Virus record (IMG/VR): IMGVR_UViG_3300028840_000792
Coordinates: 1-51,203 of that record
Strand: one strand, 5' to 3'
DNA from: a virus
Lineage: Duplodnaviria > Caudoviricetes
Length of the DNA stretch: 51,203 bases
Part shown: piece after piece, positions 13,801-48,963 of the stretch
Layout of the letters: each line of letters opens with the position of its first letter
Numbering within the stretch: position 1 is the first letter of the stretch
The notes under the pieces: model-generated
What the model was told of the DNA's origin: nothing
Database searches by the model: none
Seen by the model: only the letters and a program-made list of their open reading frames with translations
Position numbers and translations under genes: made by a program

Positions 13801-15637
13801 AAAAGGTATTTTTTCACATTGTTGGGACGATCAGGCAAGTGGATTATCATATAATTTCAATAATCCTGGAAGTGGAACTGAAGTTGAATTTCAAGGGTGT
13901 AATTTTAGCCATATTGACATAACTAACGCAAACGCAAACTGCTCAGTAAGGCTTATAGGAGGTTCTGGAGAAATTGACTTGAATAATGTTTCAACAGCTA
14001 TGACCGTTGTAGTATCTGGAAATTGGAGAATATTAAACAAGGGATCTGCTACAATAACAGATCTTGCTAACATAACCGCTATACAAGGCAAAACTCCTGG
14101 AGCAGATACATTCGATAGAACAACTGACGCACTCGAAGCCATTGAAGAAACTGTTTCTGGAAGTTTAAATGGCTATGACAAGTATAACGGCGCTGTATGG
14201 TTAATCAACGGTGGTTCAAGCGGTCAGGTAGTTGGAACTAATGGTACAGCTGATAATCCTGTTGGAAATTGGACTGATGCTAAAGCATTGGCTGGGTCTT
14301 CTAAAACTGGATTCAGCAGAATAAATGTTATAGGAACAGTCATTCCTGTTGTTGATGTTTCACTTAGTGACTTACTCATAACTGGAATAGGGACACGATC
14401 TCCAATCAATGTAAACAGTCAAGTCATTCAGAACTGCGTGTTTGTCAATATCTGGGTATCTGGTATATATGGTGCAACAAGTTGGAGAAATAAATATGTT
14501 AATTGTTTCTTCAATGGTCTTGAAGAAATGAATGATGATATAGCCTATGATAGTGAGATTAACATCGCTAAAGTCAAGGATGGGTCTACTAACAGATTTG
14601 TTCACTGTCATGGAGAAGGAACTCTTAGTTTTGAAAATGCTACATTGTCTACAACTGTATATCTTGAAGATTTTTCAACTGATGTATTGTTGATTGATAA
14701 TTCAAACAGTAACTGCAATGTAAAAGCAACTGGTCGTGGAACACTGAATCTTGATAGTGGTGCATCAAACGTTTATCTTGCTGGTCATTTTAAAACAATC
14801 AATGATTCTTCTGCAAATGTGAATCATGTTTCTAATATTGGAGATAATGCTGCTGATGATTCAGTATTCGAAAAATTGGCAGAACTTAATACATACGCTT
14901 CTAGAGTTGATGGTCTTATTGAAGATTCGTCAGGTGACAGATTCACAGAAAAAGCTCTTGAAGAAGCTCCTACTGGTGGAGATGCTACTGAAGCAAAACA
15001 AGATTCTATTCTTGAAGACATTGTAGATATGAAAGGTACAGGATTCGCTAAGGACACTGATTCTCTTGTTAATCTTTCTCATAAGGCCGGTACAAAAGGA
15101 ACTGATGATATACATGACACTATGGCTCTTAATTCGACTGTTGCTAAGGATGCAACTGTTTCAAAGGCTACTGGAACAAAGGGTACTGATAATATACATG
15201 ATGACTTAGCAACACTGTCAGGAGTTGTTGCTCTTGAATCAACATTAATTACACTGGCTGGTGTAGTTGCATTAGATTCTACAGTTGCTAAGGAATCAAC
15301 ATTATCAGCATTAGCTGGAGTTGTTGCTCTTGATTCTACTGTTGCTAAGGAGTCAACACTTTCTGGAGTTGATACTAAGGTAGCTAATGTTCAAACAAGG
15401 ATACCTTCAGCACTTCAGGATGATAGGATGAAATCTAACGTTGATGCTATCGGAGGAAGTGCTACAATCGATGGTGTTGCTCTTACAGCATGGACTGAAC
15501 TTGTTCTTGCAATGGTCAATGGAAGATTCAAGAAAGACACACCTACAACTGGACAGGTAACTTTCTACAAGAGAGATAACACAACTCCGTTAACAATTGT
15601 TAATGTAACTGATACTGAAAGAACAAGAGTGTCATAA
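10859..15637 (+). CDS. Giant repeat-rich virion protein (adhesin / tail spike-like, probable beta-helix repeats)
   Basis: 1592 aa, rich in Gly/Ser/Thr/Asp/Asn. Contains three 55-aa tandem repeats, three Y.G.VWL...G..DNP..NW.DA..LA modules each followed by beta-helix-like sequence, and C-terminal GVVALDSTVAKESTL repeats. Confidence 0.7.
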   Translation: MKLFIKKGTTNKSIDIFVQDSSKTDGSGLTGLVYNSSGLVCYYHRPGSAAAALTLATQTVTGSHSDGGFVEISSANMPGVYRLDLSDAILASGVDQVTVMLKGASNMAPVPIEIQLTGIDVNDATSGGISRIDANVSSRSSHSAADVWTSGTRSLTDKAGFSLSSAGNNAVRDVILSDSTAFPGANINAAISSRSSHSAADVWTSVTRSLTDKDGFTLSASGNNAVRDVILSDSTAFPGANINASISSRSSHSAADVWTSGTRSLTDKDGFTLSAAGNNAVRDVILSDSTPFPGANIDAAITTRATPTQVKTQADQALVDYDSSNGVAKETSVQSIQNNTRFNCVPASPILIKETGNNIFPVTVQLQDSDGNPEDPDIQETVPLLAVLSRAINGGSDKTAWFDDEAGSTPATASSTYGGNYDRMVKVSTGQFILYYKLPDTETPDVWKLTFKYKENGVEFVKERQFTVADSNPATVVLASTGVDGNTNKDVVAGALKERDVSGISDVSGSIYQDIAGSGYTPASDNLQAIQSAISGVQTTADNIETDTQDIQSKLGTPPNLGSGATVGDNLEDIAGSGFTAADDLRSIGTTVRANGETADEIYNDTKIAVYQGGVWLDSGSGNTGQIIGDDGTPDNPVNNWTDAVALAGDTKTGFHKIFVISAPTLDVNLDVMEIIGINNNNSVINFTGGTYSCDSAVFRNITVTGTPDNVAQAIFYNCKVNGLKGIEDATFYDCYLVGSFQFRNDSASAAFHNCFDNVGQGVGFDVNSPSVNCELTFSYCRFSEGAIENINGNCTVVISGIGNLDLNSPSGGEITVLGNWDVINTGTADVKTSFNIDPVQNYQGAVWLKSGGASGTTVGFHGVPDNPSGNWADALTLARAGKTGLNRICVVGNAPSLTQDIDNVEIYGITQSSFVDFSTNPGNYDAANTRFSDIAVSGKLGSGGSEEMFIRCNADGINGFQDTRWIDCVLFGQFTPLSGGKGIFSHCWDDQASGLSYNFNNPGSGTEVEFQGCNFSHIDITNANANCSVRLIGGSGEIDLNNVSTAMTVVVSGNWRILNKGSATITDLANITAIQGKTPGADTFDRTTDALEAIEETVSGSLNGYDKYNGAVWLINGGSSGQVVGTNGTADNPVGNWTDAKALAGSSKTGFSRINVIGTVIPVVDVSLSDLLITGIGTRSPINVNSQVIQNCVFVNIWVSGIYGATSWRNKYVNCFFNGLEEMNDDIAYDSEINIAKVKDGSTNRFVHCHGEGTLSFENATLSTTVYLEDFSTDVLLIDNSNSNCNVKATGRGTLNLDSGASNVYLAGHFKTINDSSANVNHVSNIGDNAADDSVFEKLAELNTYASRVDGLIEDSSGDRFTEKALEEAPTGGDATEAKQDSILEDIVDMKGTGFAKDTDSLVNLSHKAGTKGTDDIHDTMALNSTVAKDATVSKATGTKGTDNIHDDLATLSGVVALESTLITLAGVVALDSTVAKESTLSALAGVVALDSTVAKESTLSGVDTKVANVQTRIPSALQDDRMKSNVDAIGGSATIDGVALTAWTELVLAMVNGRFKKDTPTTGQVTFYKRDNTTPLTIVNVTDTERTRVS
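11267..11761 (+). repeat. Three tandem 165-nt (55-aa) intragenic repeats
   Basis: SSRSSHSAADVWTS.TRSLTDK.GF.LS..GNNAVRDVILSDST.FPGANI.A.I units start at about 11267, 11432 and 11597. Confidence 0.92.
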
Positions 15638-28342: not shown

Positions 28343-28776
28343 AGATAGTTGCTTTCTTACAGAACTGTTGGTTTCCACCAGGAACTAGTCTTTATCATAT
28401 TCGTAGGTATCTTATCAATGACGATTTTAGGAGAAAGGTTTTAAAAAAGGGATGGTCAGGTAAGAGATTGATGAACGCATTCGGTGAAGAATTGTTTGAT
28501 AAAATTATTTGGGACAATGCTTCACTTGAAGTTGGAGCTACGCCAGGTCATCGTGCTGATGCTGACAGAAACCATATTGCTAATGTTATATACAATCACA
28601 GTCCTGATTTAATATTGACATTCGGTACAGTTGCTAGAGACGCTGTACGGATAGTTAACAGGACGTGTGGGGATGGGGCATGTGTACTATCAACTAAACA
28701 CCCAAATGCAAGAGGATTTACAAACGAAGAACTGTCTCATTTTGTCAAACAAGTAAAGGAGTGGATAAATGAATAA
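28339..28776 (+). CDS. Uracil-DNA glycosylase superfamily fold protein
   Basis: LQN.W (motif-1-like), SGKRL, WDNAS, PDLILTFG..A and HPNAR (motif-2-like). Confidence 0.65.
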   Translation: MKIVAFLQNCWFPPGTSLYHIRRYLINDDFRRKVLKKGWSGKRLMNAFGEELFDKIIWDNASLEVGATPGHRADADRNHIANVIYNHSPDLILTFGTVARDAVRIVNRTCGDGACVLSTKHPNARGFTNEELSHFVKQVKEWINE

Positions 28777-29203
28777 TGCATACATCGCGTCCGGCTGGTT
28801 CAATCCTGACCAGGCAGAGGATTTAGGTTTGATTAAGGGATGTCTCAAGGCTTATGGCATAAATTTCTTCAGCCCTAAGGATGAATGCCTGTGTCCTCCT
28901 GATGCTCCTGAGGAAGACAAGATTCATACATTCAGACTCAATCTTAGAGCGATTGAAAACGCAGACTTCATTGTATGTAATACACGCAACAAGGATATGG
29001 GTTCTATCTTTGAAGCTGGTTACGCATACAAGTGTAAAAAACCAATAATCTATTTCTGTCGAGGACTTCAGGGACAATTCAACTTAATGTTGGCCAAGTC
29101 AGGAATCGCAGTTGCGACAGATTCTCACAAGCTGGCTTACTATGTAGGTCAGTTAAAAATGAATGCTAAATTTTCAGAACCGTACACGGAGGATATACAA
29201 TGA
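28769..29203 (+). CDS. Nucleoside 2-deoxyribosyltransferase / MilB-DNPH1-like N-glycosidase
   Basis: YIASGWF, FFSP, AIENAD and D.GSIFEAGYAY..KPII (catalytic Glu motif). Confidence 0.85.
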   Translation: MNNAYIASGWFNPDQAEDLGLIKGCLKAYGINFFSPKDECLCPPDAPEEDKIHTFRLNLRAIENADFIVCNTRNKDMGSIFEAGYAYKCKKPIIYFCRGLQGQFNLMLAKSGIAVATDSHKLAYYVGQLKMNAKFSEPYTEDIQ

Positions 29204-29709
29204 CAAGAACTCAAATGATGAAGTTTCTATCTGAGACTTATAAGCTTAAGACTCTGATAAGATACAACAACACTCCGAGACTGGTCAAAGAATCAGTTGC
29301 TGAACACTCATATTTTGTTACATTAACAGTTTACAAACTGTATGATGTATATAAGTTCGATCTTCTCATCGCGTTAAAAATGGCTTTGTTCCATGATGTA
29401 CCTGAAATATACTTGTCTGACATGCCAAATAACACAAAGATTACATTTCCAGAGATCGCAGCAGCTGTCAAGAATAGTTATCCATCTGCCTCAGATATGT
29501 TAGACCCTACAATGACTCCTCTTATTGATGACTATGAGAACCAAAAAACTCTTGAAGCTAAGATAGTAAAGTTAGCTGATATACTTTCTATACTTCAATA
29601 TACAAGACAGGAAGTCAAGCTCGGAAATCAGTACATGAAAACGATATATGATGGCACTCAAAAAATCGCTAACAAGATTTACAAACAACTTGAGGAATAT
29701 CAGAGATGA
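29200..29709 (+). CDS. HD-domain deoxynucleotide hydrolase (YfbR/DatZ-like)
   Basis: RY......ESVAEHS, ALFHD..E...SD.P and IVKLAD motifs. Confidence 0.88.
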   Translation: MTRTQMMKFLSETYKLKTLIRYNNTPRLVKESVAEHSYFVTLTVYKLYDVYKFDLLIALKMALFHDVPEIYLSDMPNNTKITFPEIAAAVKNSYPSASDMLDPTMTPLIDDYENQKTLEAKIVKLADILSILQYTRQEVKLGNQYMKTIYDGTQKIANKIYKQLEEYQR

Positions 29710-36307: not shown

Positions 36308-37003
36308 ATGGCAAGGAAAAAATATAGTCCCTCCAGACGTGACCTTTCGAAGGCCTGGACTGTAAAGAAGAACGGTGGTCAGAAGAAAGATATATGTTCT
36401 AGGCTGGGTATTACTATAAGAAACTATGAAGACAATGCGCAGAAGTTTAATGCGTACTTTAGACAGAAGAGGTCTAAAGAACAGCACGACATTAGCACTC
36501 TCGATCCGGCAATCGAAGCCACAAAAATAAAACCTCCTGATATGAAGAAGGGAGAAACTAAACTTACTCCCAACAACATAGACTATAATGCTCTTCAAAG
36601 TTATGCTGTTCTTGGTTATACTCAAGAGAAGATAGCTGGTCTTCTTGGAGTAACACGTTCTACATTCTTTACATTCTTAAAGAAACATCCTGAAATAAAG
36701 GAATGGATGGATAATGCTGTAGAGCGTGCCATGGATGATATATATCGAAATGGATTGTTGCTTCTATGTAAACAACACTCATTACCTGATACTCACTTTG
36801 CTAGTTATATGGGTGAGATAGTTTCTCAGAGAACAACAAGACACTTCAATCCAAATTTAGGTGCAATCAAGTATATGTTTGCTAATAAACTGGGTTGGGC
36901 AACTGAACCAAAACCTGAACAGTCTAACAACAAGGGAGCGATCCTTAAGATGTTGGATGAAATCAATAACGGAGAGGAGCATAAAGATGAAGAAAAAAAT
37001 TAG
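36308..37003 (+). CDS. terS: Terminase small subunit
   Basis: HTH segment G.TQEKIA..LGVTRSTF....K.HPE and P...AIKY...N...W; lies upstream of TerL. Confidence 0.72.
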   Translation: MARKKYSPSRRDLSKAWTVKKNGGQKKDICSRLGITIRNYEDNAQKFNAYFRQKRSKEQHDISTLDPAIEATKIKPPDMKKGETKLTPNNIDYNALQSYAVLGYTQEKIAGLLGVTRSTFFTFLKKHPEIKEWMDNAVERAMDDIYRNGLLLLCKQHSLPDTHFASYMGEIVSQRTTRHFNPNLGAIKYMFANKLGWATEPKPEQSNNKGAILKMLDEINNGEEHKDEEKN

Positions 37004-37204: not shown

Positions 37205-37510
37205 ATGAATCCAGAAGAATCAAAAAAACAAAAAGAGTTAGCTGATACTCTTATCGAAAAAAAGCAATGGAAAGTTTTTTTATTGATGGAAAGAGACATA
37301 CTTCTATCGATAAAAGGATACATCACAGCGACAAACATACCAGAAGAGACTATATTCGTTCGAGCCGGCTATCGTCTTGAACTGAGTGGTATTGCTATGC
37401 TGGGTGTTAATCCTGATTATGAACCAATGAAAGATGGGGAGACTCCTGAAGTCATTCCTGTCCAGTGGAAGACAACACGTAAGTATAATAATCAGGATGT
37501 TCCAGGATAA
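37205..37510 (+). CDS. Hypothetical protein
   Basis: AAGGAG RBS. Confidence 0.6.
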   Translation: MNPEESKKQKELADTLIEKKQWKVFLLMERDILLSIKGYITATNIPEETIFVRAGYRLELSGIAMLGVNPDYEPMKDGETPEVIPVQWKTTRKYNNQDVPG

Positions 37511-38747
37511 AGTTAGAACATTTAAACAACAGAAATTTTCCTATAGGAATTCCAATAGGAGAATAAATCTGTGGGAAGGTCCTGTCCGTAGTGGCAAGAC
37601 TGTTAGTTCTATCTTTCGGTGGATTAAGTATATAGGCAACGCTCCTGATGGCGATCTTATCATGACCGGCAAAACGAACGGTACGTTATACCGAAACATA
37701 ATTCGACCAATGCAAGAGTTGCTGGGTGATGATATGTATTACCATCAGGAGTTAGATTCACGTGTCATTGATATGTGGGACAGGAAGATATACTGTTTTG
37801 GTGCTAATGATGAAAGAGCAGAAGCCAAGATACGTGGAATGACTGCAGCTGGTGGTTATGGTGATGAAATTACTCTATGGCCTGAGAGTTACTTCATGAT
37901 GCATTTGTCTAGGATGTCTGTAGCCGGTGCTAAATTCTTTGGTTCTACAAATCCAGATAATCCACAACATTGGCTTAAGACAATGATAAATCGTAAGAAT
38001 GATTTAGACATGAATGTTTTTCACTGGCCTTTAGAAGCTAACATGCTTTCCAATGGTGGTTTCTTACCTGATGAATTTGTTGAACAGTTAAAAAAAGAAT
38101 ACGTCGGTCTATGGTACCGGCGTTTTATCTTAGGAGAATGGTGTGTAGCTGAAGGAGCTATATACGATTTCTTTGATGAATTAATACATGTATTACGAGA
38201 TGCTCCAAGTGCTGCCAGGTTTTATCAAGTATCAATAGACTATGGCACCAATAATCCTACATCATTTGGTCTATATGGGTTTAATCCTCATACTAAACCA
38301 AGGGTATGGAGAGAAAGAGGTTATTTCTGGGACAGTAAGAAAGAAGGACGACAAAAGACTGACAGAGAATTCTCTAAAGACCTAAGAAGGTTTTTAGGAA
38401 CAATAAAGCCACGTAAGATTATTATAGACCCCAGCGCTGCTTCATTTAAATTACAGTTAAAGAAAGACGGTTTCTTAAATGTTGTTGATGCTGAGAATGA
38501 AGTTGTTGATGGTATACGTACTCAGGCTCGTATGCTTCAGTCTGGTGAATATGCCATAATAAACCATCCTACAAATCAACCGTGCATCAATGAATACTAT
38601 GGCTATGTATGGGATGAGAAGGCGTCTAAACGTGGTGAAGACAAGCCATTAAAAGAAGGAGACCATACCAAAGATGATGAGAGGTATCTATTACATACCA
38701 ACTTTGGTCAGGAGTCTTTAGACCTTTCAATTTTAACGAGGATGTAA
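37434..38747 (+). CDS. terL: Terminase large subunit (PBSX-like; start may be 37497)
   Basis: GPVRSGKT, YGDE, STNP, RRFILGEW, IDYG..NP, DPSAASF and DH..D..RY motifs. Confidence 0.93.
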   Translation: MGRLLKSFLSSGRQHVSIIIRMFQDKVRTFKQQKFSYRNSNRRINLWEGPVRSGKTVSSIFRWIKYIGNAPDGDLIMTGKTNGTLYRNIIRPMQELLGDDMYYHQELDSRVIDMWDRKIYCFGANDERAEAKIRGMTAAGGYGDEITLWPESYFMMHLSRMSVAGAKFFGSTNPDNPQHWLKTMINRKNDLDMNVFHWPLEANMLSNGGFLPDEFVEQLKKEYVGLWYRRFILGEWCVAEGAIYDFFDELIHVLRDAPSAARFYQVSIDYGTNNPTSFGLYGFNPHTKPRVWRERGYFWDSKKEGRQKTDREFSKDLRRFLGTIKPRKIIIDPSAASFKLQLKKDGFLNVVDAENEVVDGIRTQARMLQSGEYAIINHPTNQPCINEYYGYVWDEKASKRGEDKPLKEGDHTKDDERYLLHTNFGQESLDLSILTRM

Positions 38748-38749
38748 CA

Positions 38750-39298
38750 ATGAAAATCGCAATATTTCCAGGACATATAGGTAAAGACAGCGGAGCATTA
38801 GACAGAGTCAGTGGTCATGAAAGCGATCATTTAATGACAATAGAATCTGTAATCAATGGTCAGGTTGCTGTTCTATTAAAAACAAAATTAGACCAGATGG
38901 AGATTAACAATGAGATATACATTGGTTCTTTTCAAAAGAGGATTGACAAGAGTCAGGGATGTGACCTTGGCATTAGTCTTCATTGTGATTCTTTCACTGA
39001 TAGTTCCGCTAATGGTTGGACTGTCTTCCATTACCCGGGGAGTAATAATGGCGTTAAATTCTCCAGCACACTCAGGTTCGAGCTTGAAAATTTTGTGGGG
39101 AAGTATATTAGAGGACGTGGAATAAAACCACATAGTTACTATATACTTGCTAAGACTAAGTTTCCATGTGTTCTACTTGAAATGGGATTTCTTACGAATG
39201 TAGATGATGAAATTAACTTAAATACGTATGAGGTTCAGAATCTCATTGCTCATAGTATATATTGTTCTATATTAAATTTCGTTCAAATGAAAGGGTAA
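38750..39298 (+). CDS. N-acetylmuramoyl-L-alanine amidase (Amidase_3) endolysin
   Basis: PGH.G.D.GA, E...N, SLHCD and LLEMGFLTN..D zinc-amidase motifs. Confidence 0.88.
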   Translation: MKIAIFPGHIGKDSGALDRVSGHESDHLMTIESVINGQVAVLLKTKLDQMEINNEIYIGSFQKRIDKSQGCDLGISLHCDSFTDSSANGWTVFHYPGSNNGVKFSSTLRFELENFVGKYIRGRGIKPHSYYILAKTKFPCVLLEMGFLTNVDDEINLNTYEVQNLIAHSIYCSILNFVQMKG

Positions 39299-39302
39299 AA
39301 CC

Positions 39303-40718
39303 ATGACAAAGAAAAAACCAGCAGCACTACATCACAAACGTAGTGATTCTGCCATAGTCCGTGCCAGGAAACAATTAAACACAGATGGCTGGAGTAACAT
39401 ATACACTGGTCAGGGCATTGAAGGAAAGGACAAATTTTTAGGCACATCGTTTGGAAGAGTAGCTAGATTCACAGAACAACAGTTGTCTGACCTCTATCGT
39501 GGCGATGGTTTTGCTAAAAGGATTATTGACTTTCCAACTGGGGAAATGATTAGAGAATGGTTTGAAGTCAATGGTGATACTGACGGTGATATAAATAAGT
39601 ATCTAGCAACAATACGAACAAGACAGGCTGTACTGATGGCACTACGGTGGGCAAGGTTACATGGTGGTGCTATTGTTGTAATGATTATCAACGATGGTGG
39701 TTCTTTAGATACTCCTCTTAATGAAGCAAACGTTAGAGGTATAGAGGCTTTCCACATATACGAAAGATGGAGAATCACATGGACTACTGCTGACCTGTAC
39801 CAAGACCCAAATGACCCCAAGTTTGGTACCCTTGAGTATTACCATGTATCTCCAGTGTCTGAAGGAGGGATATCACCATTCACTGTTCATGAAACAAGAA
39901 TCTTAAAGTTTGATGGCATGCCTGTGTCAAACAAGGTGAGGCAGGAAAACAATGGTTGGGGTGATTCATACATTCAGTCTGTGTATAATGAACTGGCAAA
40001 CTTAACTGGTAGTTTCTATGCTGCTAGGAATGTATTGGATGATTTTGTTCAAATCTTAATCAAGATAGAGAATCTTCAGGAATTGATTGCTGCAGGTAAT
40101 GAAGCACTCGTTCGTAAGCGTCTTGAAATCATAGATATGGGTAGACATATGATGAATACAATCATGCTTGATGCTAGAGAGGATTATGAAAAACATTCAT
40201 CATCTATTGCCGGTATGTCTGATGTATTACAAAAGATGGGTGAAGCGTTATCTACTGTTACCGAGATACCAATGACACTCCTATTCGGTCAGTCTCCTAA
40301 GGGGTTTAATGCTAAGGATGATGGTAGTCTACGTAAGTGGTATGACAAGGTAGCTCAAGACCAAGAGGATGAATTAAGACCTAACTTAGAGAGACTTGTA
40401 TATCTCTCAATGATATCTAAAGAAGGTCCTACATCAGGGTCTGAAATTAAAGACTGGTCTATCACGTTTAATCCATTGTGGCAGCCTACTGAACAAGAGA
40501 TTGTTGATATGAGAAACAAGCAGGCTGAGACTGATAAGATATACATCGATTCCGGAGTCTTATTTCCAGAAGAGGTCGCTACATCACGATTTGGTGGCGA
40601 TGAATACTCTATAGAAACAAAACTGACAAGTACAGAATCAAGAGAAAGACCACAGAAAATTCCTTTCGGTATGGAACCAGAACCAGAACCTGATGATGAC
40701 GATGAAGATGAAGAGTAG
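39303..40718 (+). CDS. Portal protein (DUF1073-like)
   Basis: DGW.N, RIID, WARLHGG, HETR, GWGDS, IPMTLLFGQSP.G.NA and FNPLWQ motifs. Confidence 0.9.
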   Translation: MTKKKPAALHHKRSDSAIVRARKQLNTDGWSNIYTGQGIEGKDKFLGTSFGRVARFTEQQLSDLYRGDGFAKRIIDFPTGEMIREWFEVNGDTDGDINKYLATIRTRQAVLMALRWARLHGGAIVVMIINDGGSLDTPLNEANVRGIEAFHIYERWRITWTTADLYQDPNDPKFGTLEYYHVSPVSEGGISPFTVHETRILKFDGMPVSNKVRQENNGWGDSYIQSVYNELANLTGSFYAARNVLDDFVQILIKIENLQELIAAGNEALVRKRLEIIDMGRHMMNTIMLDAREDYEKHSSSIAGMSDVLQKMGEALSTVTEIPMTLLFGQSPKGFNAKDDGSLRKWYDKVAQDQEDELRPNLERLVYLSMISKEGPTSGSEIKDWSITFNPLWQPTEQEIVDMRNKQAETDKIYIDSGVLFPEEVATSRFGGDEYSIETKLTSTESRERPQKIPFGMEPEPEPDDDDEDEE

Positions 40719-40726
40719 GATGAATC

Positions 40727-43700
40727 ATGCCAGTAATGAGATGCCAGATAAATGGTAAGAAGGGATGGAAGTATGGCGCTTCAGGAAAGTGTTATACTGG
40801 ACCTGATTCCAAGTCTAAGGCTGCTGCTCAGGGTAGAGCAATAAAGGCAAGCCAGTCAAGGGGTGATGCAGCGTCTCCTGATGCTGTAATGCAGATTGAA
40901 ATGAGACGACAACAGATGGCTGGTCGTAAACCAAGAAAGTTTGTTGTACAAAAGAGACTTCCTAAGTGGCTGTTTCCTATGCCGATGGAAATGGAATATG
41001 AAGCTAAGTTAGTCAAGTACGTAGAGGCAATCGAAGGAAAGATTGAAAAGATACTTATTCCACACATACCTAGTCTTATAGAACAGAGAAACGCTTTTGT
41101 TCCTGAGTCTTCTGAAGGTAAAACTGATACACGTTCTGATGACTGGGCTGATGATGGCGAAAGACTGATGGAGTCTGTCGTCCTGTCACTGGAAGATATA
41201 CCATTCAGTAAACCAGCACTGGCTGCCGATATAGCAAACAAGACCAATGCATGGAATGATAAGGAATGGAAGAAGATTCTTAATGCTGCATTTGGTGTCG
41301 ATGTATATCAAAGGGAACCATGGCTCAACCAAGAATTAAATTCATTCTCTAAAGAGAATGTTACTCTAATCACTAAGATGGAACAGGATTTACTTGATGA
41401 TGTCAGTTCCACTCTACAAAGAAGTATTAAGCAGGGTAATTCAGCCAGTACTGTTGCTGAAGAAATAAGACAAAGAACTAACGTATCAAAATCACGTGCT
41501 AGACTTATAGCGAGAGACCAGGTAGGAAAATTAAATGGTCAATTGACTGAATTACGCCAGACTAACATAGGTGTTACACACTATCTATGGAGAGACTCTG
41601 ATGACAAGAGGGTAAGACCCACACATCAGAAGAACGATGGCAAACGGTTTTCCTGGGAAAAACCACCAGCTGGTACCGGACATCCTGGACAGGACATACA
41701 GTGCCGGTGCTGGGCTGAACCTGATTTTACACCAGTGTATCGAGAGATACAACCTGAACCTGTTGCTCCATTAATAGAAGAAGGCAAGCTTAATGATGCT
41801 CAGAAAGAATTACTGAAACAGTATGATTCTGTTCAGGCTACAGATAATTTCGTTATTGCAATGTCAATGTTTGCTCAGAGATTCGGAACTACTTCAATGT
41901 TAAGAAATTCTAGAATCATGTCTGTGTTTAATGTCAGTAAACTTAAAAAATATATTTCATTAAGAAATCTTGTCAATTTAAGTAAGTTTACAGGCTCTAA
42001 CTCCTTGGTAATTGAAAATCTTCTTAACACTGCGTTACAATCTCAGACAGGATTAAGGATACCTAAGGGTATGGTTCCAGCAGCTACCAAGATTCTTAAA
42101 GGAGTTAAAGTTTCTAAGACAGCTAGTGCATACATCGTAGGTGCAGATGAAGTTGTTGATGCTCTTGGTAAAGTTCGTAGATTTATAAAGACTAATAAGG
42201 TTTCTAAAAAGGGAGTGACGTTTAATCAAATAAAGAAAGGAAAGTTTGCTAAGCCACTGCCACCGTCAAAGACTGGCACAATAATAAGTAAAGAAAAATT
42301 GACAAAAGAAAAACGATCTAAAATTCTTGATGAAATTGGTCAAATATATTCTGATAAACTAGATACTGATAGACTTATTTTTATGAGGGATGCTATTGCT
42401 GAACCACATACTAGCGCTGTGTATATTGCTAGAGATGTGAATACTGGTATGATTAAAGGAGCTATGTCAATTGTTGATGAGAAAGATGCTTTGTATATCA
42501 GTAACTTAGGTTCTATGTTTGAAAAAGAAGCTATTGGCACTCAGTTAATTCAAGAAGTATTGTTATTAGCTAAAAAAAGAAATATTCCTGTCTGGCTTAA
42601 TTCCACACCTAATTCAGCATCTTTTTATGAATGGTTGGGTTTTAAACAACCGAAAAAAAATTATTTTGTTGCTAGAGTCAATGAACTGGATAAGATACTT
42701 GGTATAGTCGATCTTAGAATAGGTCAAGCAATTCTTCCTAAGTTTCCTCCTACAGTGACTAAACCTCCAAAACCTACAGCAGTTAAGAAAAGGAAACCTA
42801 AGGCTCCTGTTAAGCCTAAGAAAAAGATTGCTGATGTACCTGAAACACCAAAGCCATTTAAACCAGTTGAATTTGAACCATATCTTCCAGAGAAGAACAT
42901 TCATTTTGATACTGAAGTTGATATTGTACAGCATCAGAATTTAGCTAAAAATAGACAGGTTATATCTGAGTCACTGAAAGAAACATACACTCTTGAAAGG
43001 AGAAAGAGGCTTTCTAAGAGAGGTCAACAGGGTCTAATGGCTATTGAAGATGCTGCTGACAGTAAACTTTCTAGTGATATATTTGTCGCTAGAGATGCTA
43101 ACTCTGGTGATATAATCGGAGCATTGGCTGTAGATTTTGGAAAGACTGAAGGCATACAGATACATTCATTAGGGACTATCTATCCTGACGAAGCCATAGG
43201 AACTGAATTAATGGAAAGAGTTTTTTGGCATGCTAAGAATTCTAATAGATCGATTCTTGTAAGTGCTACAAAAGATTCTGTTCCATTTTATCAGAGGTAT
43301 GGCTTTAACGTAGGAAAGGTAGTCAAAGATACTGACATAAGAATGCGCTTGTTTCCTGAAGCACTTCCTTCAGCTTATGCTCGTGTTGCTACTGACATGA
43401 TGAATGCACATGGAACAATAGGTGTATTTCCAGCTGGTAATAGACCACAGATATTAAAGAAGGGTGCTGGTAACAGAGCCACTAAGGTAGCTTCTCTTGG
43501 TAATGAGATACGATACGTTTCTAGACAGGAACTGGGTATCTTTATTGATGCTAGAACAGGAACAACAATAAGTAGATTTCGTGGTGGTGATTCAGAAATA
43601 TCTATAGACGATCTTGACTTAGCTAGATTTGAAGATAACATATTCATACATAACCATTCTAATAACACATCATTCAGTCCTCCTGACTTGATTAATGCTT

Positions 43701-44629
43701 TCGCAACTAATCTTTCTAAGTCTATTGCTGTATCTCCAAAGTATACATACACAATATCTAGAAAGAGTGGTAAGAAAGAATGGGTTCCTGAAATGAATCA
43801 GGCTGAGGTTGAATCTTTTAAGAAAGAATGGCAGGACTCATTTCTTACAGAATATCGTAAGTTAAACAATAAACTTCTATCAAAACAAACATTTCTTGAC
43901 CAGGCTGATTCAGACATAATGATGGCTGAGGCTACTCACACAGTTAACAAGAAGTTTGCTAGTAAGTATGGTTTTAATTATGTTAGACATCCTCACATAG
44001 AAGTTAAAGACATACCTAAGACTAGCACTATTCCCAAGGGAACATCAGACATAACTAAGTTACGTTCAGAAGCTAAGAAGTTTAAAGACACAATAAAGAG
44101 TCAGAGATATTGGACTACAAGACAAGGTATTGATGACTATGTTCAAGATGCTGGTGAATCTGTAAATAATTATCTTCTTAATCCAGACGAGATTAGACGT
44201 AAGGCGTCTGATAAATACATAGATGAACTTGAAACAATAATAGATGGTCTTGACTTTATGTTTGATTCTCTCCCATATCCACGGTATGCTGGTGAATCAT
44301 TTCGTGGTATGAACTTTTCACCTACTCAGTTTGATGATTTTCTTGACATACTTGATGATGCTGGAAGAGATGGAACAATCTCATTTCCTACATTCGTGTC
44401 TTCAACAAGACAGTCATCTAAAGCTGTTCATTTTATGAATAGAACTAGTGGATACAATGTGTACATGACTATCAAGGGGAAGAATGGTTTCTTTATCGAT
44501 GACATATTCAGTACATTTGATGAGAAGGAAATATTGTTTAGAAGAGATACTAAATGGAAAATCTTATCAATGGAAGAACAGGATGTATACGGTAGACCTG
44601 GCTTAGTACTTGAACTGGAGGAACTATAA
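40727..44629 (+). CDS. MuF (SPP1 gp7-like) minor head protein fused to two GNAT domains, a JAB-like domain and an ADP-ribosyltransferase
   Basis: MuF: RARLIARDQ, W....D.RVR..H, HPG....CRC. Two GNAT copies: AIGT.L...FY...GF. JAB-like: HNH...SFS..D. ART: FRG...FVSST...EKEILF. Confidence 0.85.
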   Translation: MPVMRCQINGKKGWKYGASGKCYTGPDSKSKAAAQGRAIKASQSRGDAASPDAVMQIEMRRQQMAGRKPRKFVVQKRLPKWLFPMPMEMEYEAKLVKYVEAIEGKIEKILIPHIPSLIEQRNAFVPESSEGKTDTRSDDWADDGERLMESVVLSLEDIPFSKPALAADIANKTNAWNDKEWKKILNAAFGVDVYQREPWLNQELNSFSKENVTLITKMEQDLLDDVSSTLQRSIKQGNSASTVAEEIRQRTNVSKSRARLIARDQVGKLNGQLTELRQTNIGVTHYLWRDSDDKRVRPTHQKNDGKRFSWEKPPAGTGHPGQDIQCRCWAEPDFTPVYREIQPEPVAPLIEEGKLNDAQKELLKQYDSVQATDNFVIAMSMFAQRFGTTSMLRNSRIMSVFNVSKLKKYISLRNLVNLSKFTGSNSLVIENLLNTALQSQTGLRIPKGMVPAATKILKGVKVSKTASAYIVGADEVVDALGKVRRFIKTNKVSKKGVTFNQIKKGKFAKPLPPSKTGTIISKEKLTKEKRSKILDEIGQIYSDKLDTDRLIFMRDAIAEPHTSAVYIARDVNTGMIKGAMSIVDEKDALYISNLGSMFEKEAIGTQLIQEVLLLAKKRNIPVWLNSTPNSASFYEWLGFKQPKKNYFVARVNELDKILGIVDLRIGQAILPKFPPTVTKPPKPTAVKKRKPKAPVKPKKKIADVPETPKPFKPVEFEPYLPEKNIHFDTEVDIVQHQNLAKNRQVISESLKETYTLERRKRLSKRGQQGLMAIEDAADSKLSSDIFVARDANSGDIIGALAVDFGKTEGIQIHSLGTIYPDEAIGTELMERVFWHAKNSNRSILVSATKDSVPFYQRYGFNVGKVVKDTDIRMRLFPEALPSAYARVATDMMNAHGTIGVFPAGNRPQILKKGAGNRATKVASLGNEIRYVSRQELGIFIDARTGTTISRFRGGDSEISIDDLDLARFEDNIFIHNHSNNTSFSPPDLINAFATNLSKSIAVSPKYTYTISRKSGKKEWVPEMNQAEVESFKKEWQDSFLTEYRKLNNKLLSKQTFLDQADSDIMMAEATHTVNKKFASKYGFNYVRHPHIEVKDIPKTSTIPKGTSDITKLRSEAKKFKDTIKSQRYWTTRQGIDDYVQDAGESVNNYLLNPDEIRRKASDKYIDELETIIDGLDFMFDSLPYPRYAGESFRGMNFSPTQFDDFLDILDDAGRDGTISFPTFVSSTRQSSKAVHFMNRTSGYNVYMTIKGKNGFFIDDIFSTFDEKEILFRRDTKWKILSMEEQDVYGRPGLVLELEEL

Positions 44630-44772
44630 TGGCTGAAGATAGAAAGAGGAGATGGAGACAACCTATGATGCCTGCTCTGATTAAGAGAGGCAAAAAAAGG
44701 TCTGATGAAGAATCATCATTCATAAACCTTCGTAAAAAAATAAAGGAGGAAAAAGATGCCGGGGATCGATGA
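44629..44772 (+). CDS. Small basic 47-aa protein (not in ORF track)
   Basis: TAATG-coupled to MuF with GGAGG RBS; MAEDRKRRWRQPMM... Confidence 0.5.
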   Translation: MAEDRKRRWRQPMMPALIKRGKKRSDEESSFINLRKKIKEEKDAGDR

Positions 44773-45001
44773 CAGATTTGTTGATGGTGACTATTTTTCT
44801 CCAGTGTGTAGTAACTGTAACAATCTACTTGATATGGTTAAGCATACATGTCGTGCTTTTCCTGAACCTGACAGGATACCTGATGAGATATGGGGAAATT
44901 CTAACAAGCATACAAAACCAGTCAAGGGAGACATGGGGATAATATTTCAACCAATTAAAAAGACCACACCAAATCAGAAGGCAGTAGAGAATGTACAGTA
45001 A
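44756..45001 (+). CDS. Small Cys/His metal-binding protein downstream of MuF-ART
   Basis: C..C........C.AFP....IP.EI......H..P..GD.GI.F.P; AAGGAGG RBS. Confidence 0.7.
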   Translation: MPGIDDRFVDGDYFSPVCSNCNNLLDMVKHTCRAFPEPDRIPDEIWGNSNKHTKPVKGDMGIIFQPIKKTTPNQKAVENVQ

Positions 45002-45227
45002 CATTGATGAATACATCGAATTAATAAGAGACCAGATACATCGTGTCTCTAGAGAAAAATTCACAGGTAACATTAAAGTAAATATATCAATGCGTCAGGG
45101 AGGTATTGGACGTGTCAACCTAAACATGGATACCAACCTGGAATTAAAAAATTTATCAAAATCGGCCGAAAATGCGACATTTAAAAAAAAGCCTTTACGC
45201 GTCCATCCCGGCATGATAGATTATTAA
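44991..45227 (+). CDS. Small protein, YezD/DUF2292-like pattern
   Basis: Helix followed by KFTG.I.V.I....GGI..V beta-hairpin pattern; lies directly before a structured leader. Confidence 0.5.
   Translation: MYSNIDEYIELIRDQIHRVSREKFTGNIKVNISMRQGGIGRVNLNMDTNLELKNLSKSAENATFKKKPLRVHPGMIDY
45183..45222 (+). promoter_or_regulatory. Promoter for the capsid/late operon
   Basis: A8 tract, CC-TTTACG (45194-99), 17 nt ending TGA, then TAGATT (45217-22). Confidence 0.68.
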
Positions 45228-45240
45228 CAGGTATTTTACC

Positions 45241-45362
45241 AGGCCGTCTCGTGGCCTTTTGAATTAAAGAAAAGAAGTTAACGAGACCCTGGGCAATGGT
45301 CGCTATTCTCCTTTCAAAGATTAGCTACCTAGCTCAGGGTCTTTTCTTTTTGTAGAAAGGGG
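45241..45362 (+). promoter_or_regulatory. Structured 5' leader: pseudoknot, terminator-like hairpin and anti-SD
   Basis: Pairings are listed in the corresponding finding. Confidence 0.6.
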
Positions 45363-45371
45363 ATGTATATT

Positions 45372-45887
45372 ATGGGTGTTCCTTCAGGGTATGTATCACC
45401 AGCTAAAAATCTATATCAGTTCCTGGATACTGATGGTGATGAATCAGGCACCATCAATGCTGTCGGTGACTACAGTTCAGAAGCAGAAGACTTCTTCATT
45501 CAACCTCCATCAGGATATATATACGAGATTTCAAGACTGATTGTTAACATACAGTCGGATTCTGTAATTGCTTCTGGAAAGTATGGCAGTGTCGCTGCTC
45601 TTACTAACGGTGTAAAAGCAATTGTTTCTCTTGATGGAGTAGAAACTCAAATTAATAAAGAAGCTATCAAGTCTCACGATGACTGGGCTGGAATCTGTCA
45701 TGATTCAGTTGCATTGAATTACGGTGCTTCTGCTGGTAAGTCAGTTTCAGTAAGATGGTCATTCTTCAAATCAGGAGCAAACATCTGGTTGAGAGACACT
45801 GATAAGTTTATCATGCGCCTTAATGACGATCTTCAAGGATTATCAAAGCATCGTTTCTTTGTTAACGGAATAAAACATACTGAATAA
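45372..45887 (+). CDS. Hypothetical protein, first gene of the head operon (possibly virion-associated)
   Basis: GAAAGGGG 9 nt before ATG 45372; beta-rich composition. Confidence 0.65.
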   Translation: MGVPSGYVSPAKNLYQFLDTDGDESGTINAVGDYSSEAEDFFIQPPSGYIYEISRLIVNIQSDSVIASGKYGSVAALTNGVKAIVSLDGVETQINKEAIKSHDDWAGICHDSVALNYGASAGKSVSVRWSFFKSGANIWLRDTDKFIMRLNDDLQGLSKHRFFVNGIKHTE

Positions 45888-45902: not shown

Positions 45903-47159
45903 ATGACAGTTTATCGCTATGACAAGGGCGAAATTCGTTCAGCCCATTTTACTCCTGAGGGTTTTCTCGTTGTAGATGCCATAGTAACTCGTACTGGCGT
46001 GTTTATGTATAGGAACCAGGATGGTTCTCTAAGGAGAGAATTAAGACATCCTGATGATATACTTAAGAAAGACTCGCTTAAGTCGATGGAAATGTTACCC
46101 ATCACCCTGCTACATCCGAAAGAGAAGTCAGTGGATTCTTTGAACGCTTCCCGGTTGTCCAAAGGATTCACTGGCCAATCTGTCACAGTGGATGGTAAGT
46201 ATATAAAGAATCGTCTCGTTATAACACACCAAGACGCCATTGATGCTGTAATGAGCGGCATGGACGAACTTTCTCTTGGATATACAGTAAAGCTGGTTGA
46301 TGACGGTGGTGGTCAGTATGACGATCAGAGGTATGACTATAAACAAACTGAAGTATACTACAATCATCTTGCCATTGTACCAGCTGCTAGAGCTGGAAAA
46401 GAAGCCAAAATAAAACTTGACCAGGAAGATGCTTTCCAGTGTGTCATGCCTGCTGATGGTAAATGTTCTGGTAGTTGTTATACTTGTAGTTATTCTATTA
46501 AGCATCGTGGTGATTTACATATCGATAACACTGAACTACGAAAGAAAACAGACAAGAAAACTGATTCCAAACACCAAACAAAGGAGAAAAAAATGGAAAA
46601 AATCAGAATCGACGGAATCGAATACGAAGCGGCTCCTGAGGTAATCAACAAGCTCAAGAAGGAGACTGATCGTGCCGATACGGCTGAAAAGAGTCTGGAA
46701 AGTGCCACTAAAGAGAAATCAACTCTTCAGGCAAATCTGGATGAAGCCAACGACAAGCTGAAGAAAGCAGAAGAAACCAACAATGACGAAGCCATCCAAA
46801 CTGCAGTGAAGGCTCGTCTTGATTTGGTCGCTTTAGCTACTCCTCATCTCGATGAAGAGACTGTCAAGAAAATCGATCAGATGTCTGATAACGAAATCAA
46901 ACTGGCCGTTATCAAAGCTCACTTTCCTGAATTCAAGGAAGATGGCAGGGATGATGTATACATCCAGGCTCGTTTCGACGGTGCTGTCGAAATGAAAAAG
47001 GAAGAGAACAATGACGGAATTCGTTCTCAACGTCAGGCAACTTCAGGAAGAGAAGACAAAGATGACAAGAGCAATCGTGTCGATCAGGGTGCTTCTCGTA
47101 AGGACTACATCGACAATCTGAAGAACGGATGGAAGAAAACAGGCACAGACGACAAATAA
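45903..47159 (+). CDS. Prohead protease-scaffold (DUF2213-like)
   Basis: TPEGFL, RTGV..Y, PITL.HP, ELSLGY, NHLAIV..ARAG; coiled-coil C-terminus. Confidence 0.9.
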   Translation: MTVYRYDKGEIRSAHFTPEGFLVVDAIVTRTGVFMYRNQDGSLRRELRHPDDILKKDSLKSMEMLPITLLHPKEKSVDSLNASRLSKGFTGQSVTVDGKYIKNRLVITHQDAIDAVMSGMDELSLGYTVKLVDDGGGQYDDQRYDYKQTEVYYNHLAIVPAARAGKEAKIKLDQEDAFQCVMPADGKCSGSCYTCSYSIKHRGDLHIDNTELRKKTDKKTDSKHQTKEKKMEKIRIDGIEYEAAPEVINKLKKETDRADTAEKSLESATKEKSTLQANLDEANDKLKKAEETNNDEAIQTAVKARLDLVALATPHLDEETVKKIDQMSDNEIKLAVIKAHFPEFKEDGRDDVYIQARFDGAVEMKKEENNDGIRSQRQATSGREDKDDKSNRVDQGASRKDYIDNLKNGWKKTGTDDK

Positions 47160-47210: not shown

Positions 47211-47975
47211 ATGTCTCAAACATCTTACAACATTGAACAGGGCGAGGCGTACGCTGGTATGAAAGTGGACTCTCGTTTTGATACTGTTGAGAGTAAGCTG
47301 ATGGAAGCACCGGCTAACGCTGCAGTTCCCTTCGGTATCGGGCTTATGTCTGGTAATGAAGACGCTGTAAATCAGGTCAGGCGCCCAGCTAAGACTAAGT
47401 CAGTACTTACAGCAAGTACTGATTTGGTTACTTCCAACTCAACAATAGTTACTATCAACGGAACTGCTCTCGATCCGGTTGTGTATGCAGACAGTCATGC
47501 AGATACCATGGCTGCTATCGCTGCTGCCATTGAAGCAGATGATGCTGTACTTACAGCTACATATCCTGGTTCAGGTGATGATATAACTATCATTGGTGCT
47601 GATGGCGTTGCCATAGACGCTTCTGCAGTAACCACTGGTGGGGCAGGCCAGCCGACCTGGACTCAGGTTCAGTCAGACCCCGGCGTTGTTCGTGGTATTC
47701 TGGTACACAGGCACGTTGAGAAAGCCCAGACTACTGGAGTAGCGGCTCTCTATGATACCGATTCAGCTGATGTACTTCGTGTCGGTGAAATCTGGATGCC
47801 CTACACCGATACTCCTGAAGTTGATGCAGCCCTTTATTTTGAACTCGGTGCTGCTGGTTCTGAAGGATATGCTACTGACGAATCATCCGGAAACATCGCA
47901 GTACCTGGCGGAAAAATCAGGGAAGTAAACGCTACACTCGGACTTCTCAAAGCCAACATCAATCTGCCTCAGTAA
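47211..47975 (+). CDS. Capsid decoration / cement protein
   Basis: MSQTSY...AYAG, VPFG and VLR.G.IW motifs; lies between scaffold and major capsid genes. Confidence 0.75.
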   Translation: MSQTSYNIEQGEAYAGMKVDSRFDTVESKLMEAPANAAVPFGIGLMSGNEDAVNQVRRPAKTKSVLTASTDLVTSNSTIVTINGTALDPVVYADSHADTMAAIAAAIEADDAVLTATYPGSGDDITIIGADGVAIDASAVTTGGAGQPTWTQVQSDPGVVRGILVHRHVEKAQTTGVAALYDTDSADVLRVGEIWMPYTDTPEVDAALYFELGAAGSEGYATDESSGNIAVPGGKIREVNATLGLLKANINLPQ

Positions 47976-48021: not shown

Positions 48022-48963
48022 ATGGAAACAATCATAAGTCAAAATCTCGATGCGAATGAATCAGCATTCTTCGCTAGAGAGCTTGAGTATATCAAGGCCA
48101 AAACCTATGATATCAAGTACCCTGCGCTTAAGGCTACTATGCTGATTCCTCCGTCGACTGACGCTGGACCTGGCGCAGAAACAATCACTTATCAGCAGTT
48201 CGATCAGGTCGGTATAATGAAGATTATATCGAACTATGCTGACGATCTTCCTCGTTCTGATGTATTCGGAGTGGAATATACATCCAAGGTGAAATCCCTC
48301 GGTGGTTCCTATGGATACAACATTCAGGAAATCAGGAATGCCAACATGGCTGGTCGTCCTCTCAATTCTCGTAAGGCTGCCTCTGTAAGGAAAGCAAATG
48401 ACCTTCGAGTAGACAGGATCGCCTGGTACGGCAATGCAAAAGCCGGTCTTCTCGGTCTCTTCAATCAGCCCAACGTACCAGCAGGTGCTGTAGTTAACCC
48501 GGGTTCAGGAACTGAGTGGGTGAATAAAAACGCCCAGCAGATGCTGGATGACCTCAACACTTCAGTCACTTCAATCGAAGAGACTACAAAAGGTGTTGAA
48601 GTACCGGACACCATTCTTCTGCCTATTGCACAGAATCGTAGAATTTCTACGACTGTCATGGGTACCGGCACCGACACTACAGTCAAGGAATTTTTCCTTA
48701 AGAACAACCCCGAAATCAAGATGATCGAGTGGGTCAATGAACTTAAGGATGTGACTCCTCTCCCCTCTGGAGATGCAGGGACGAAAGATATCGGTGTTAC
48801 TTACAAGAGAGACCCCGATATTCTTACTCTCGAAATTCCTCAGCCTTTTGAGCAGTTCCCGGCTCAGGAAAGAAACCTTGAGTTCGTGGTGCCTGCTCAT
48901 TCCCGTATTGGCGGAGTAATAGTTTATTACCCGCTTGCCATCGATATTTTCGAAGGCATCTGA
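48022..48963 (+). CDS. Major capsid protein (DUF2184-like, HK97 fold)
   Basis: FFARELEYI, GL.N.P and GGV..YYP motifs; C3-rich codon usage consistent with high expression; strong RBS. Confidence 0.92.
   Translation: METIISQNLDANESAFFARELEYIKAKTYDIKYPALKATMLIPPSTDAGPGAETITYQQFDQVGIMKIISNYADDLPRSDVFGVEYTSKVKSLGGSYGYNIQEIRNANMAGRPLNSRKAASVRKANDLRVDRIAWYGNAKAGLLGLFNQPNVPAGAVVNPGSGTEWVNKNAQQMLDDLNTSVTSIEETTKGVEVPDTILLPIAQNRRISTTVMGTGTDTTVKEFFLKNNPEIKMIEWVNELKDVTPLPSGDAGTKDIGVTYKRDPDILTLEIPQPFEQFPAQERNLEFVVPAHSRIGGVIVYYPLAIDIFEGI

Follow-up and report, generated by a model that had tools for sequence, protein, structure and literature searches.

The DNA analysed here, referred to as the window throughout, is the IMG/VR virus record IMGVR_UViG_3300028840_000792 (Duplodnaviria; Caudoviricetes), which is complete at 51,203 bp and bears direct terminal repeats. 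On its plus strand, positions 40727..44629 (stop included) form a single open reading frame (ORF) in the ORF list, which starts with ATG and is translated into a 1300-aa protein that we describe as a MuF minor head protein bearing an array of cargo domains. The stop of the portal gene lies at 40718 and the MuF gene begins 8 nt later, at 40727, with an AGGA Shine-Dalgarno motif 6 nt upstream of its ATG. The ~960 residues after MuF are predicted to hold, in this order, two GNAT acetyltransferase-like domains, a RadC-like JAB domain and an ADP-ribosyltransferase (ART) of the Alt/VIP2 type, joined by presumably flexible linkers that are basic or proline-rich. An earlier note, made from the sequence of this DNA alone, had proposed a 1300-aa MuF head protein with the same cargo order; its coordinates were confirmed, all peptides it quoted are present in the translation of 40727..44629, and its five domain calls all survived testing.

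A protein of this kind might be an artefact of assembly or annotation, in which a chimeric contig or an overlooked stop codon makes several genes look like one, and the protein cluster is indeed known from one contig only. In three runs from marine sediment or seawater metagenomes, however, the region 40000-45300 was found in one piece on Logan contigs of 50-51 kb, with 0 differences and a contig depth of 97-174, each of these runs being a possible source of this DNA. A fourth run contains six fragments of the same region, again with 0 differences. As the single-piece contigs are intact and free of differences in three runs, the long ORF is not an assembly chimera; fused MuF-cargo ORFs are moreover found in relatives of this gene too, and the chance that the array is an artefact is negligible in our judgement.

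Residues 1-340 (40727..41746, plus strand) comprise a conserved N-terminal region and the MuF/SPP1-gp7 domain, the presumed capsid or portal anchor of the protein. Pfam Phage_Mu_F (PF04233) matches residues 225-329, i.e. 41399-41713, with an E-value of 4.4e-23 and 82.6 bits against a cutoff of 29.6, which agrees with the MuF core placed by the earlier note at 41490-41722 (residues 255-332). TIGR01641 (phageSPP1_gp7) likewise exceeds its cutoff of 39.65 with 81.8 bits (E 4.3e-23), and PHROG head-morphogenesis profiles span residues 48-342, with phrog_324 reaching E 2.3e-74. The gene also has the position expected of a MuF family member, as it adjoins the portal gene in a head module with protease, cement and major capsid genes downstream. 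The MuF region is followed by a basic segment (residues 341-535, 41747..42331, plus strand; Lys+Arg 18%, Asp+Glu 7%), for which the best Pfam match was only E 0.14 and for which word-index searches and the atlas gave no homologue, shorter ones included. Single-sequence AlphaFold was uninformative for this segment, with a pLDDT of 39.

The first cargo module is a GNAT acetyltransferase-like domain at residues 536-660 (42332..42706, plus strand), identified by Acetyltransf_10, Acetyltransf_7 and phrog_1917. When excised as residues 548-668, it was matched by Acetyltransf_10 over residues 575-644 at 24.0 bits, narrowly above the cutoff of 23.6, and by Acetyltransf_7 with E 1.3e-5, while phrog_1917, a 'virion structural protein' profile, aligns with residues 561-659. 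A 51-residue linker rich in proline and lysine separates this domain from the next (residues 671-721, 42737..42889, plus strand); in the surrounding segment 661-750, 17% of the residues are Pro and 20% Lys+Arg. GNAT-2 (residues 751-875, 42977..43351, plus strand) was matched at residues 784-862 and, excised, scored 26.3 bits against the same Acetyltransf_10 cutoff of 23.6, again by a narrow margin. Over the whole protein the profile reached 41.2 bits in two stretches, with the cutoff at 23.6. The spans read from the letters alone, residues 563-639 for GNAT-1, about 42735-42890 for the Pro/Lys linker and residues 783-860 for GNAT-2, thus coincide closely with the matched regions, and the proposed paralogy of the two GNATs is borne out by BLASTP, which aligned them with 34% identity over 95 aa (E 8e-19). 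Despite this low overall identity, both domains retain an EAIGT loop and an FY motif, which we take to be, respectively, the loop that binds the pyrophosphate of acetyl-CoA and the tyrosine that is usually catalytic in GNATs. A tblastn search with GNAT-2 against cultured phages returned nothing at E<=0.01.

The third module (residues 916-1096, 43472..44014, plus strand) is a JAB/MPN+ (RadC-like) metallohydrolase-like domain with a C-terminal two-helix extension, in which the catalytic-type residues E935, H975, H977, S984 and D987 are encoded within 43523-43690. A JAB-like domain had been guessed here, at 43520-43765, from its motif alone; this guess held in view of family conservation, an AlphaFold model, fold searches and hhalign. 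Direct sequence searches were of little help, as Pfam, scanned with residues 872-1131 at E<=10, gave one unrelated weak match and neither RadC (PF04002) nor Tox-JAB-2 (DUF4329), comparison with PDB sequences by phmmer and by profile gave nothing relevant, and the atlas gave nothing. An exhaustive phmmer search of 1.84 billion cluster representatives, by contrast, retrieved 98 homologues at E<=1e-3, a number that counts clusters at 50% identity. In an alignment with 47 short members, H975, H977, S984 and D987 are invariant and E935 nearly so. All five E/H/H/S/D residues are kept in 115 of 120 domain copies from 100 proteins, tandem-array copies included, and three of the five copies without the full pentad are N-terminally cut fragments. 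The conservation of the pentad in so many copies argues for selection on an enzyme activity.

The AlphaFold model of the JAB-like domain, built with the family alignment, reached a pLDDT of 86.2 and a pTM of 0.82, and JAB/MPN entries came first in both fold searches made with it. Foldseek against the PDB gave no match at E<=1e-3; the best entry was RadC (2qlc, E 8e-3), followed by Rpn11, CSN5, AMSH and JAMM1. In a viral structure library there were 29 matches at E<=1e-3; the top ones are proteins of uncultured phages that are uncharacterised or labelled 'minor capsid', and entries labelled RadC or MPN are among the 29. Alignment of the family profile A1 with E. coli YicR, a RadC-like JAB protein, by hhalign gave a probability of 82% (E 1e-5, 60 columns), with the E, HNH and S..D positions in register and a one-residue gap between HxH and S. 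YicR was taken from an annotated record as the RadC reference; a RadC search of the control genomes gave no loci. An NCBIfam scan of six family members found none that reached a cutoff, and only P0003 matched RadC models, weakly; P0005 passes the Pfam RadC cutoff with 28.8 bits against 22.1, summed over its copies. We conclude that residues 916-1096 are a JAB/MPN+ domain, which appears nearest to the RadC type.

The window domain has the E...HxH...S..D residues and the fold in common with RadC/YicR, archaeal JAMM1, CBASS Cap3 and the Rpn11/CSN5/AMSH group, and its HNHP wording resembles RadC. It differs from the JAB/MPN+ superfamily in its HxH-to-S spacing, which is 6 residues in this family and 7 in the canonical arrangement, as well as in its own C-terminal extension of two helices and a strand with a conserved H and Y.R. 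It is matched by no Pfam or NCBIfam model, that of RadC included. The fold scores of RadC, Cap3 and JAMM1 lie less than one Z unit apart and therefore do not decide among the roles of JAB proteins. The earlier note had connected the domain to de-conjugation, and of this proposal the JAB identity stands, whereas removal of a ubiquitin-like modifier becomes one of several possible roles, because the Aravind group argues that the RadC-type clade has no groove for a ubiquitin tail and might work on nucleic acids instead. Passages of Zhang 2012 that describe JAB toxin domains, such as Tox-JAB-1 and Tox-JAB-2 of polymorphic toxins, make this argument for both RadC-like and toxin JABs and suggest that they may be nucleases (PMC3482391). 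A RadC-type action on nucleic acid is a serious candidate for the function of this module, somewhat short of probable, and a Cap3- or DUB-like isopeptidase activity is a more tentative one. Self-processing of the polyprotein seems rather improbable to us, and the same holds for some other role.

To see in which proteins this JAB family occurs, 72 of its 98 members were scanned with Pfam, the 26 left out all being of at most 249 aa. A MuF-type domain (PF04233 or PF06152) lies N-terminal to the JAB module in 24 of these 72 members. The metagenomic protein P0007 is a portal-MuF-JAB fusion, and in the metagenomic proteins P0087 and P0091 an XkdF-type prohead protease is fused to two JAB copies. 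Two to four tandem JAB copies were found in 15 family proteins. A close parallel to the window protein is P0005 (1232 aa), which likewise combines MuF, an ART and the JAB-like module; it differs in having four tandem JAB copies, no GNAT and an ART of another Pfam family (DRAT-type). By phmmer, neither the window ART nor the GNATs nor residues 341-535 showed similarity to any of the 98 JAB-family proteins. The recurrent joining of the JAB module to proteins of the capsid interior is the best indirect evidence that it may serve as capsid cargo.

Other fusion partners of the JAB module are a type IB topoisomerase (P0053) and a DnaJ domain, the latter together with three JAB copies (P0004), and P0080 carries a PI3/PI4-kinase-like domain together with three JAB-like copies. 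In the open-access literature, only Zhang 2012 and Iyer 2017 were found relevant to the MuF-linked JAB family, and supplements of Iyer 2017 and Jamet 2017 may already catalogue it. A bolder proposal would see the JAB family as widespread capsid-delivered zinc hydrolases that act as injected counter-defence enzymes, through Cap3-mimicking removal of ubiquitin-like or CD-NTase-type conjugates or nucleic-acid processing at entry, and that form part of a four-enzyme takeover kit in this supposedly virulent phage; we regard this as speculative and improbable as a whole.

The C-terminal module follows a basic linker (residues 1097-1130, 44015..44116, plus strand; Lys+Arg 26%) and is an R-S-ExE ADP-ribosyltransferase domain at residues 1131-1300 (44117..44626, plus strand), with R1193, S1225-S1226-T1227 and E1266-K-E1268 as its motif residues. 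Excised, it was matched by Pfam ADPrib_exo_Tox (PF03496) over residues 1131-1296 with E 3.6e-9 and 36.7 bits against a cutoff of 23.4, and weak PDB sequence matches were found to CdtA, Vip2 and related ADP-ribosyltransferase chains. The R-S-E ART with an EKE motif that had been read from the letters at 44130-44629 is thereby recovered, EKE being residues 1266-1268. R1193 (in S.RGM.F), S1225-S1226 and E1266/E1268 are invariant in an alignment with four cultured-phage MuF-ART C-termini. ExE and SS(T) also align with CdtA, for which HMMER places the Arg seven residues earlier, so the assignment of R1193 rests on the cultured-phage alignment and not on that with CdtA. The ExE form of ARTs goes with an arginine acceptor.

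A tblastn search with the ART domain matched 28 records from cultured phages of Xanthomonas, Pseudomonas and Stenotrophomonas with 24-31% identity, all of the matches lying in 'minor head' or 'morphogenesis' genes. The four proteins used for the alignment, PaMx28 gp10, the PA_LZ02 protein, Xanthomonas phage Elanor gp19 and Stenotrophomonas phage QDWS359 gp34 (Pamexvirus/Bradleyvirinae), are encoded right after the portal gene as in the window, comprise 1193-1202 aa and likewise have MuF near the N-terminus and an R-S-ExE ART, 28-29% identical to that of the window, at the extreme C-terminus. Their middle of ~780 aa contains, unlike the window protein, neither a GNAT nor a JAB-like module by sequence, and their ART also matches Pfam 'NAD:arginine ART', which the window ART does not. 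The same MuF-VIP2 fusion is described for AXL1 gp16, where passages of the report call its function unknown (PMC9206674). In these four cultured phages (L005-L008), an ORF of 90-95 aa, 81-94% identical among them, starts 1 nt after the MuF-ART gene and is a candidate partner of the ART.

The portal protein of the window has relatives in two IMG/VR contigs, L002 and L003. In L002, where the portal is 45% identical, the MuF protein has 811 aa, with 42% identity over the first 341 aa and the order MuF, Pro-rich linker, ~200 unassigned residues and JAB-like module, while L003 has a plain MuF protein of 293 aa. Residues 386-600 of the L002 protein were considered as a further ART on account of an FYRG-like motif and rejected, as they gave no Pfam match at E<=0.5 and no phmmer similarity to the window ART. 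A metagenome scan with residues 1-340 extended the comparison to 80 loci, 73 of them with the 3' stop. In 47 of these 73 genes less than 100 aa follow the MuF match and in the other 26 it is 100-455 aa, against 960 aa in the window protein; the five strongest-matching loci (43-52% identity) are plain MuF. Extension-bearing ORFs scanned with Pfam again numbered 26, namely 24 of the 26 complete ones and two cut ones, with two apparent duplicates excluded. ADPrib_exo_Tox was found in one of them, a glutamine-deamidase toxin domain in five, PI3/4-kinase-like domains in two, LPD1 in one and FAD-oxidase/GatB in one; 16 gave nothing.

The JAB-like profile matched one of the 80 loci (L016), and by phmmer none of them showed similarity to the window GNATs, ART or residues 341-535. 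The comparison of related MuF proteins that the earlier note had suggested as a check hence yields a modular and varied cargo, in no case with these GNATs. Given the varied extensions across the 73 genes, the C-terminus of this MuF lineage is a polymorphic cargo site, of which the window protein represents the extreme case. Among these relatives, the papain-fold glutamine-deamidase toxin domain (Gln_amidase) is the only cargo of L064, L065, L066, L081 and L087, and PI3/PI4-kinase-like cargo is found on the MuF proteins L076:1275-3398 and L085:5440-7719. The MuF ORF L086:382-1593 ends in FAD-oxidase_C and GatB fragments and may stem from a chimeric contig or from a captured host gene fragment.

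Multi-enzyme virion proteins of this type are not without precedent. Passages of Iyer 2017 define polyvalent proteins, name ARTs, GNATs and RadC among their modules, propose their injection with the DNA and mention a phage GNAT family that typically adjoins an ART (PMC5512222). The window protein falls within this definition, as it combines three kinds of enzyme domain with a virion structural domain and is encoded in the head module. Polyvalent proteins in which a RimI-like GNAT stands beside an ART, such as BAR32501.1 of an uncultured Mediterranean phage, share with it, as described there, the multi-enzyme virion polypeptide. Their ARTs are of the H-Y-D type according to the same passages, which state that Alt/VIP2 ARTs are absent from genuine polyvalent proteins (PMC5512222), whereas the window protein has the R-S-ExE form. 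Many Alt/VIP2 ARTs fused to MuF are mentioned in parts of Iyer 2022 (PMC9503650). T4 Alt belongs to the same R-S-E clade as the window ART and is described, in passages of both papers, as packaged in the head, injected with the DNA and modifying host RNA polymerase and other proteins (PMC5512222, PMC9503650); it has neither a MuF fusion nor additional enzymatic domains and was not among the ART matches of the phage tblastn search.

Taken together, we consider it probable that the 1300-aa protein is a MuF minor head protein with four enzyme-like cargo modules that is delivered into the host. The virion-delivered polyvalent effector envisaged in the earlier note is the standard published inference for such an architecture (PMC5512222, PMC9503650, PMC5576092) and would fit the position of the gene between portal and head protease. 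We infer packaging, ejection, activity and targets of the cargo, as well as a takeover or counter-defence purpose. By way of its MuF part, the protein would be recruited in a few copies to the prohead around the portal, in line with passages of the MuF/gp7 literature, Iyer 2017 included, that describe a DNA-binding head component of 2-3 copies (PMC5512222). Its linked modules would then be stored inside the capsid like beads on a string, and upon infection the protein, either intact or after cleavage by the head protease, would exit with the DNA through the portal and tail channel, as T4 Alt does. The catalytic modules could thereby modify host macromolecules ahead of any phage gene expression, with the ART ADP-ribosylating protein, probably at arginine given its ExE motif, the two GNATs transferring acetyl or acyl groups, and the JAB module acting as a hydrolase. 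The low copy number would fit enzymes better than stoichiometric inhibitors.

Several observations weigh against delivery of four active enzymes. A protein of ~145 kDa, as estimated from its 1300 residues, would need to unfold to traverse the tail channel, the 195 residues of segment 341-535 are without domain assignment, and the phage is uncultured, with no RNA-type run among the listed runs that hold this sequence. The cargo might also act in the producing cell or in the prohead without ever being delivered, modifying components of phage or host at a late stage of infection, or the head protease might remove it ahead of packaging, as passages of Iyer 2017 report for P1 DdrB (PMC5512222). A head maturation protease gene does lie two to three genes downstream (45903..47159, plus strand; DUF2213 E 1.2e-39, phrog_530 E 1.1e-84) and encodes a possible processing enzyme, for which the basic or Pro-rich linkers would be exposed. 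Such a fate would leave it hard to explain why JAB modules are recurrently fused to MuF, portal or prohead protease and Alt/VIP2 ARTs to MuF, and enzymes needed late could simply be encoded as free proteins. We therefore regard undelivered cargo as unlikely and favour delivery with the DNA.

The second doubt concerns activity. The canonical GNAT acetyl-CoA loop is Q/RxxGxG/A, whereas the window loops read E-K-E-A-I-G in GNAT-1 and P-D-E-A-I-G in GNAT-2, with Ala at the first Gly and without Q/R. Moreover, no full-length relative of the 1300-aa protein was found in a word index of 5.8 billion proteins (715-2275 aa; queries residues 340-1300 or 540-875) or by a pattern scan of IMG/VR, so that the array may be young and some of its modules possibly non-functional; megablast against cultured phages likewise gave no close DNA relative of the window. 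The GC content of the cargo (41900-44600) is 33-38%, lower than the 39-43% of the portal, MuF core and protease genes on either side, which is compatible with a later acquisition of the cargo. Together with the excised GNATs scoring barely above the Pfam cutoff, these points could mean that only some of the four modules are active and that others are decaying or structural, with one GNAT, for example, as a non-catalytic partner. The EAIGT loop and FY motif kept in both paralogues at 34% identity, the intact ART triad and JAB pentad, and a 3.9-kb ORF without stop or frameshift on contigs with 0 differences speak against decay, and we judge partial activity to be a fairly unlikely outcome.

The genes around the 1300-aa gene form a myophage morphogenesis module; the record carries its tail sheath, tape measure and baseplate genes at the opposite end. 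According to Pfam and PHROG scans, it comprises the small terminase (36308-37003), the large terminase (37434-38747), an Amidase_3 endolysin (38750-39298, plus strand), the portal (39303..40718, plus strand; Phage_portal_3 E 1.5e-87), and, downstream of the protease, the cement protein (47211-47975) and the major capsid protein (48022-48963). The location of the endolysin gene between large terminase and portal is unusual for a lysis gene. Two small ORFs on the plus strand follow the cargo gene, 44756-45001 (81 aa, with a CxxC...C pattern) and 44991-45227 (78 aa), neither of which has a Pfam or PHROG match or is similar to the small ORFs after the cultured MuF-ART genes. In L002, the next listed ORF of at least 100 aa after MuF is an orthologue of 45363-45887 (37% identity, E 2e-32), and the small-ORF pair is absent. 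The pair may have been acquired along with the cargo and might serve, for instance, in immunity, as chaperones or in regulation.

These small ORFs, as well as the combination of MuF with a toxin-type ART, would also suit a polymorphic MuF toxin of the kind described by Jamet 2017, by which phage particles kill or inhibit non-immune competitors of a lysogen that is itself protected by an immunity gene nearby. Passages of that paper describe 191 MuF toxins, 14% of them ARTs, only in temperate phages, and hypothesise delivery with the DNA (PMC5576092). The window protein shares the N-terminal MuF and C-terminal toxin-type domain with these toxins, such as the EFV toxin of Enterococcus faecalis V583, and is unlike them in its four cargo domains and in a genome without a recombinase match. 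Neither a tyrosine (PF00589) nor a serine (PF00239) recombinase was matched in the complete 51,203-bp record, whereas the same searches were positive in 14 of 14 and 12 of 14 control genomes, respectively, and none of the 30 ORFs scanned matched the PHROG lysogeny category. Since the phage furthermore encodes its own DNA polymerase, primase and helicase by PHROG, and the small ORFs have no Pfam or PHROG match, a lysogen-borne toxin system appears very unlikely to us, and delivery of an effector during infection is the reading that we retain.

Elsewhere in the window, a 1592-aa ORF in the tail/baseplate region (10859-15637, plus strand) has no PHROG match at E<=1e-5 and is probably a tail fibre or receptor-binding protein without recognisable relatives. 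Two adjoining genes at 28769-29709 (plus strand) match nucleoside deoxyribosyltransferase and dATP triphosphohydrolase PHROGs, which hints at nucleotide-pool manipulation or a modified base.

The concept behind this protein has been published before: Iyer 2017 defined polyvalent proteins, Jamet 2017 described MuF toxins, and MuF-ART fusions are known from cultured Pamexvirus phages. What is new, as far as the predicted domains go, is the size of the array, 960 aa against at most 455 aa in those 73 related MuF genes that keep their 3' stop, the joining of two GNATs, one RadC-like JAB and an ART of the R-S-ExE form to MuF in a phage without detectable recombinase, and a JAB module that has no Pfam or NCBIfam model and recurs on anchors of the capsid interior. 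Provided that the cargo reaches the host and works there, the few copies in each virion would supply three chemistries, ADP-ribosylation, acetylation and metal-dependent hydrolysis, ahead of phage gene expression. The 'polyvalent effector' hypothesis, which so far rests mainly on comparative genomics, would then have a compact test case in this protein. Among the by-products, the JAB-like family found with MuF is the most useful one; it has a confident fold model, near-invariant catalytic residues and no database model, and its function would bear on the long-open role of RadC-type JAB domains. Together with the cultured Pamexvirus examples, the case shows MuF-toxin fusions beyond temperate phages.

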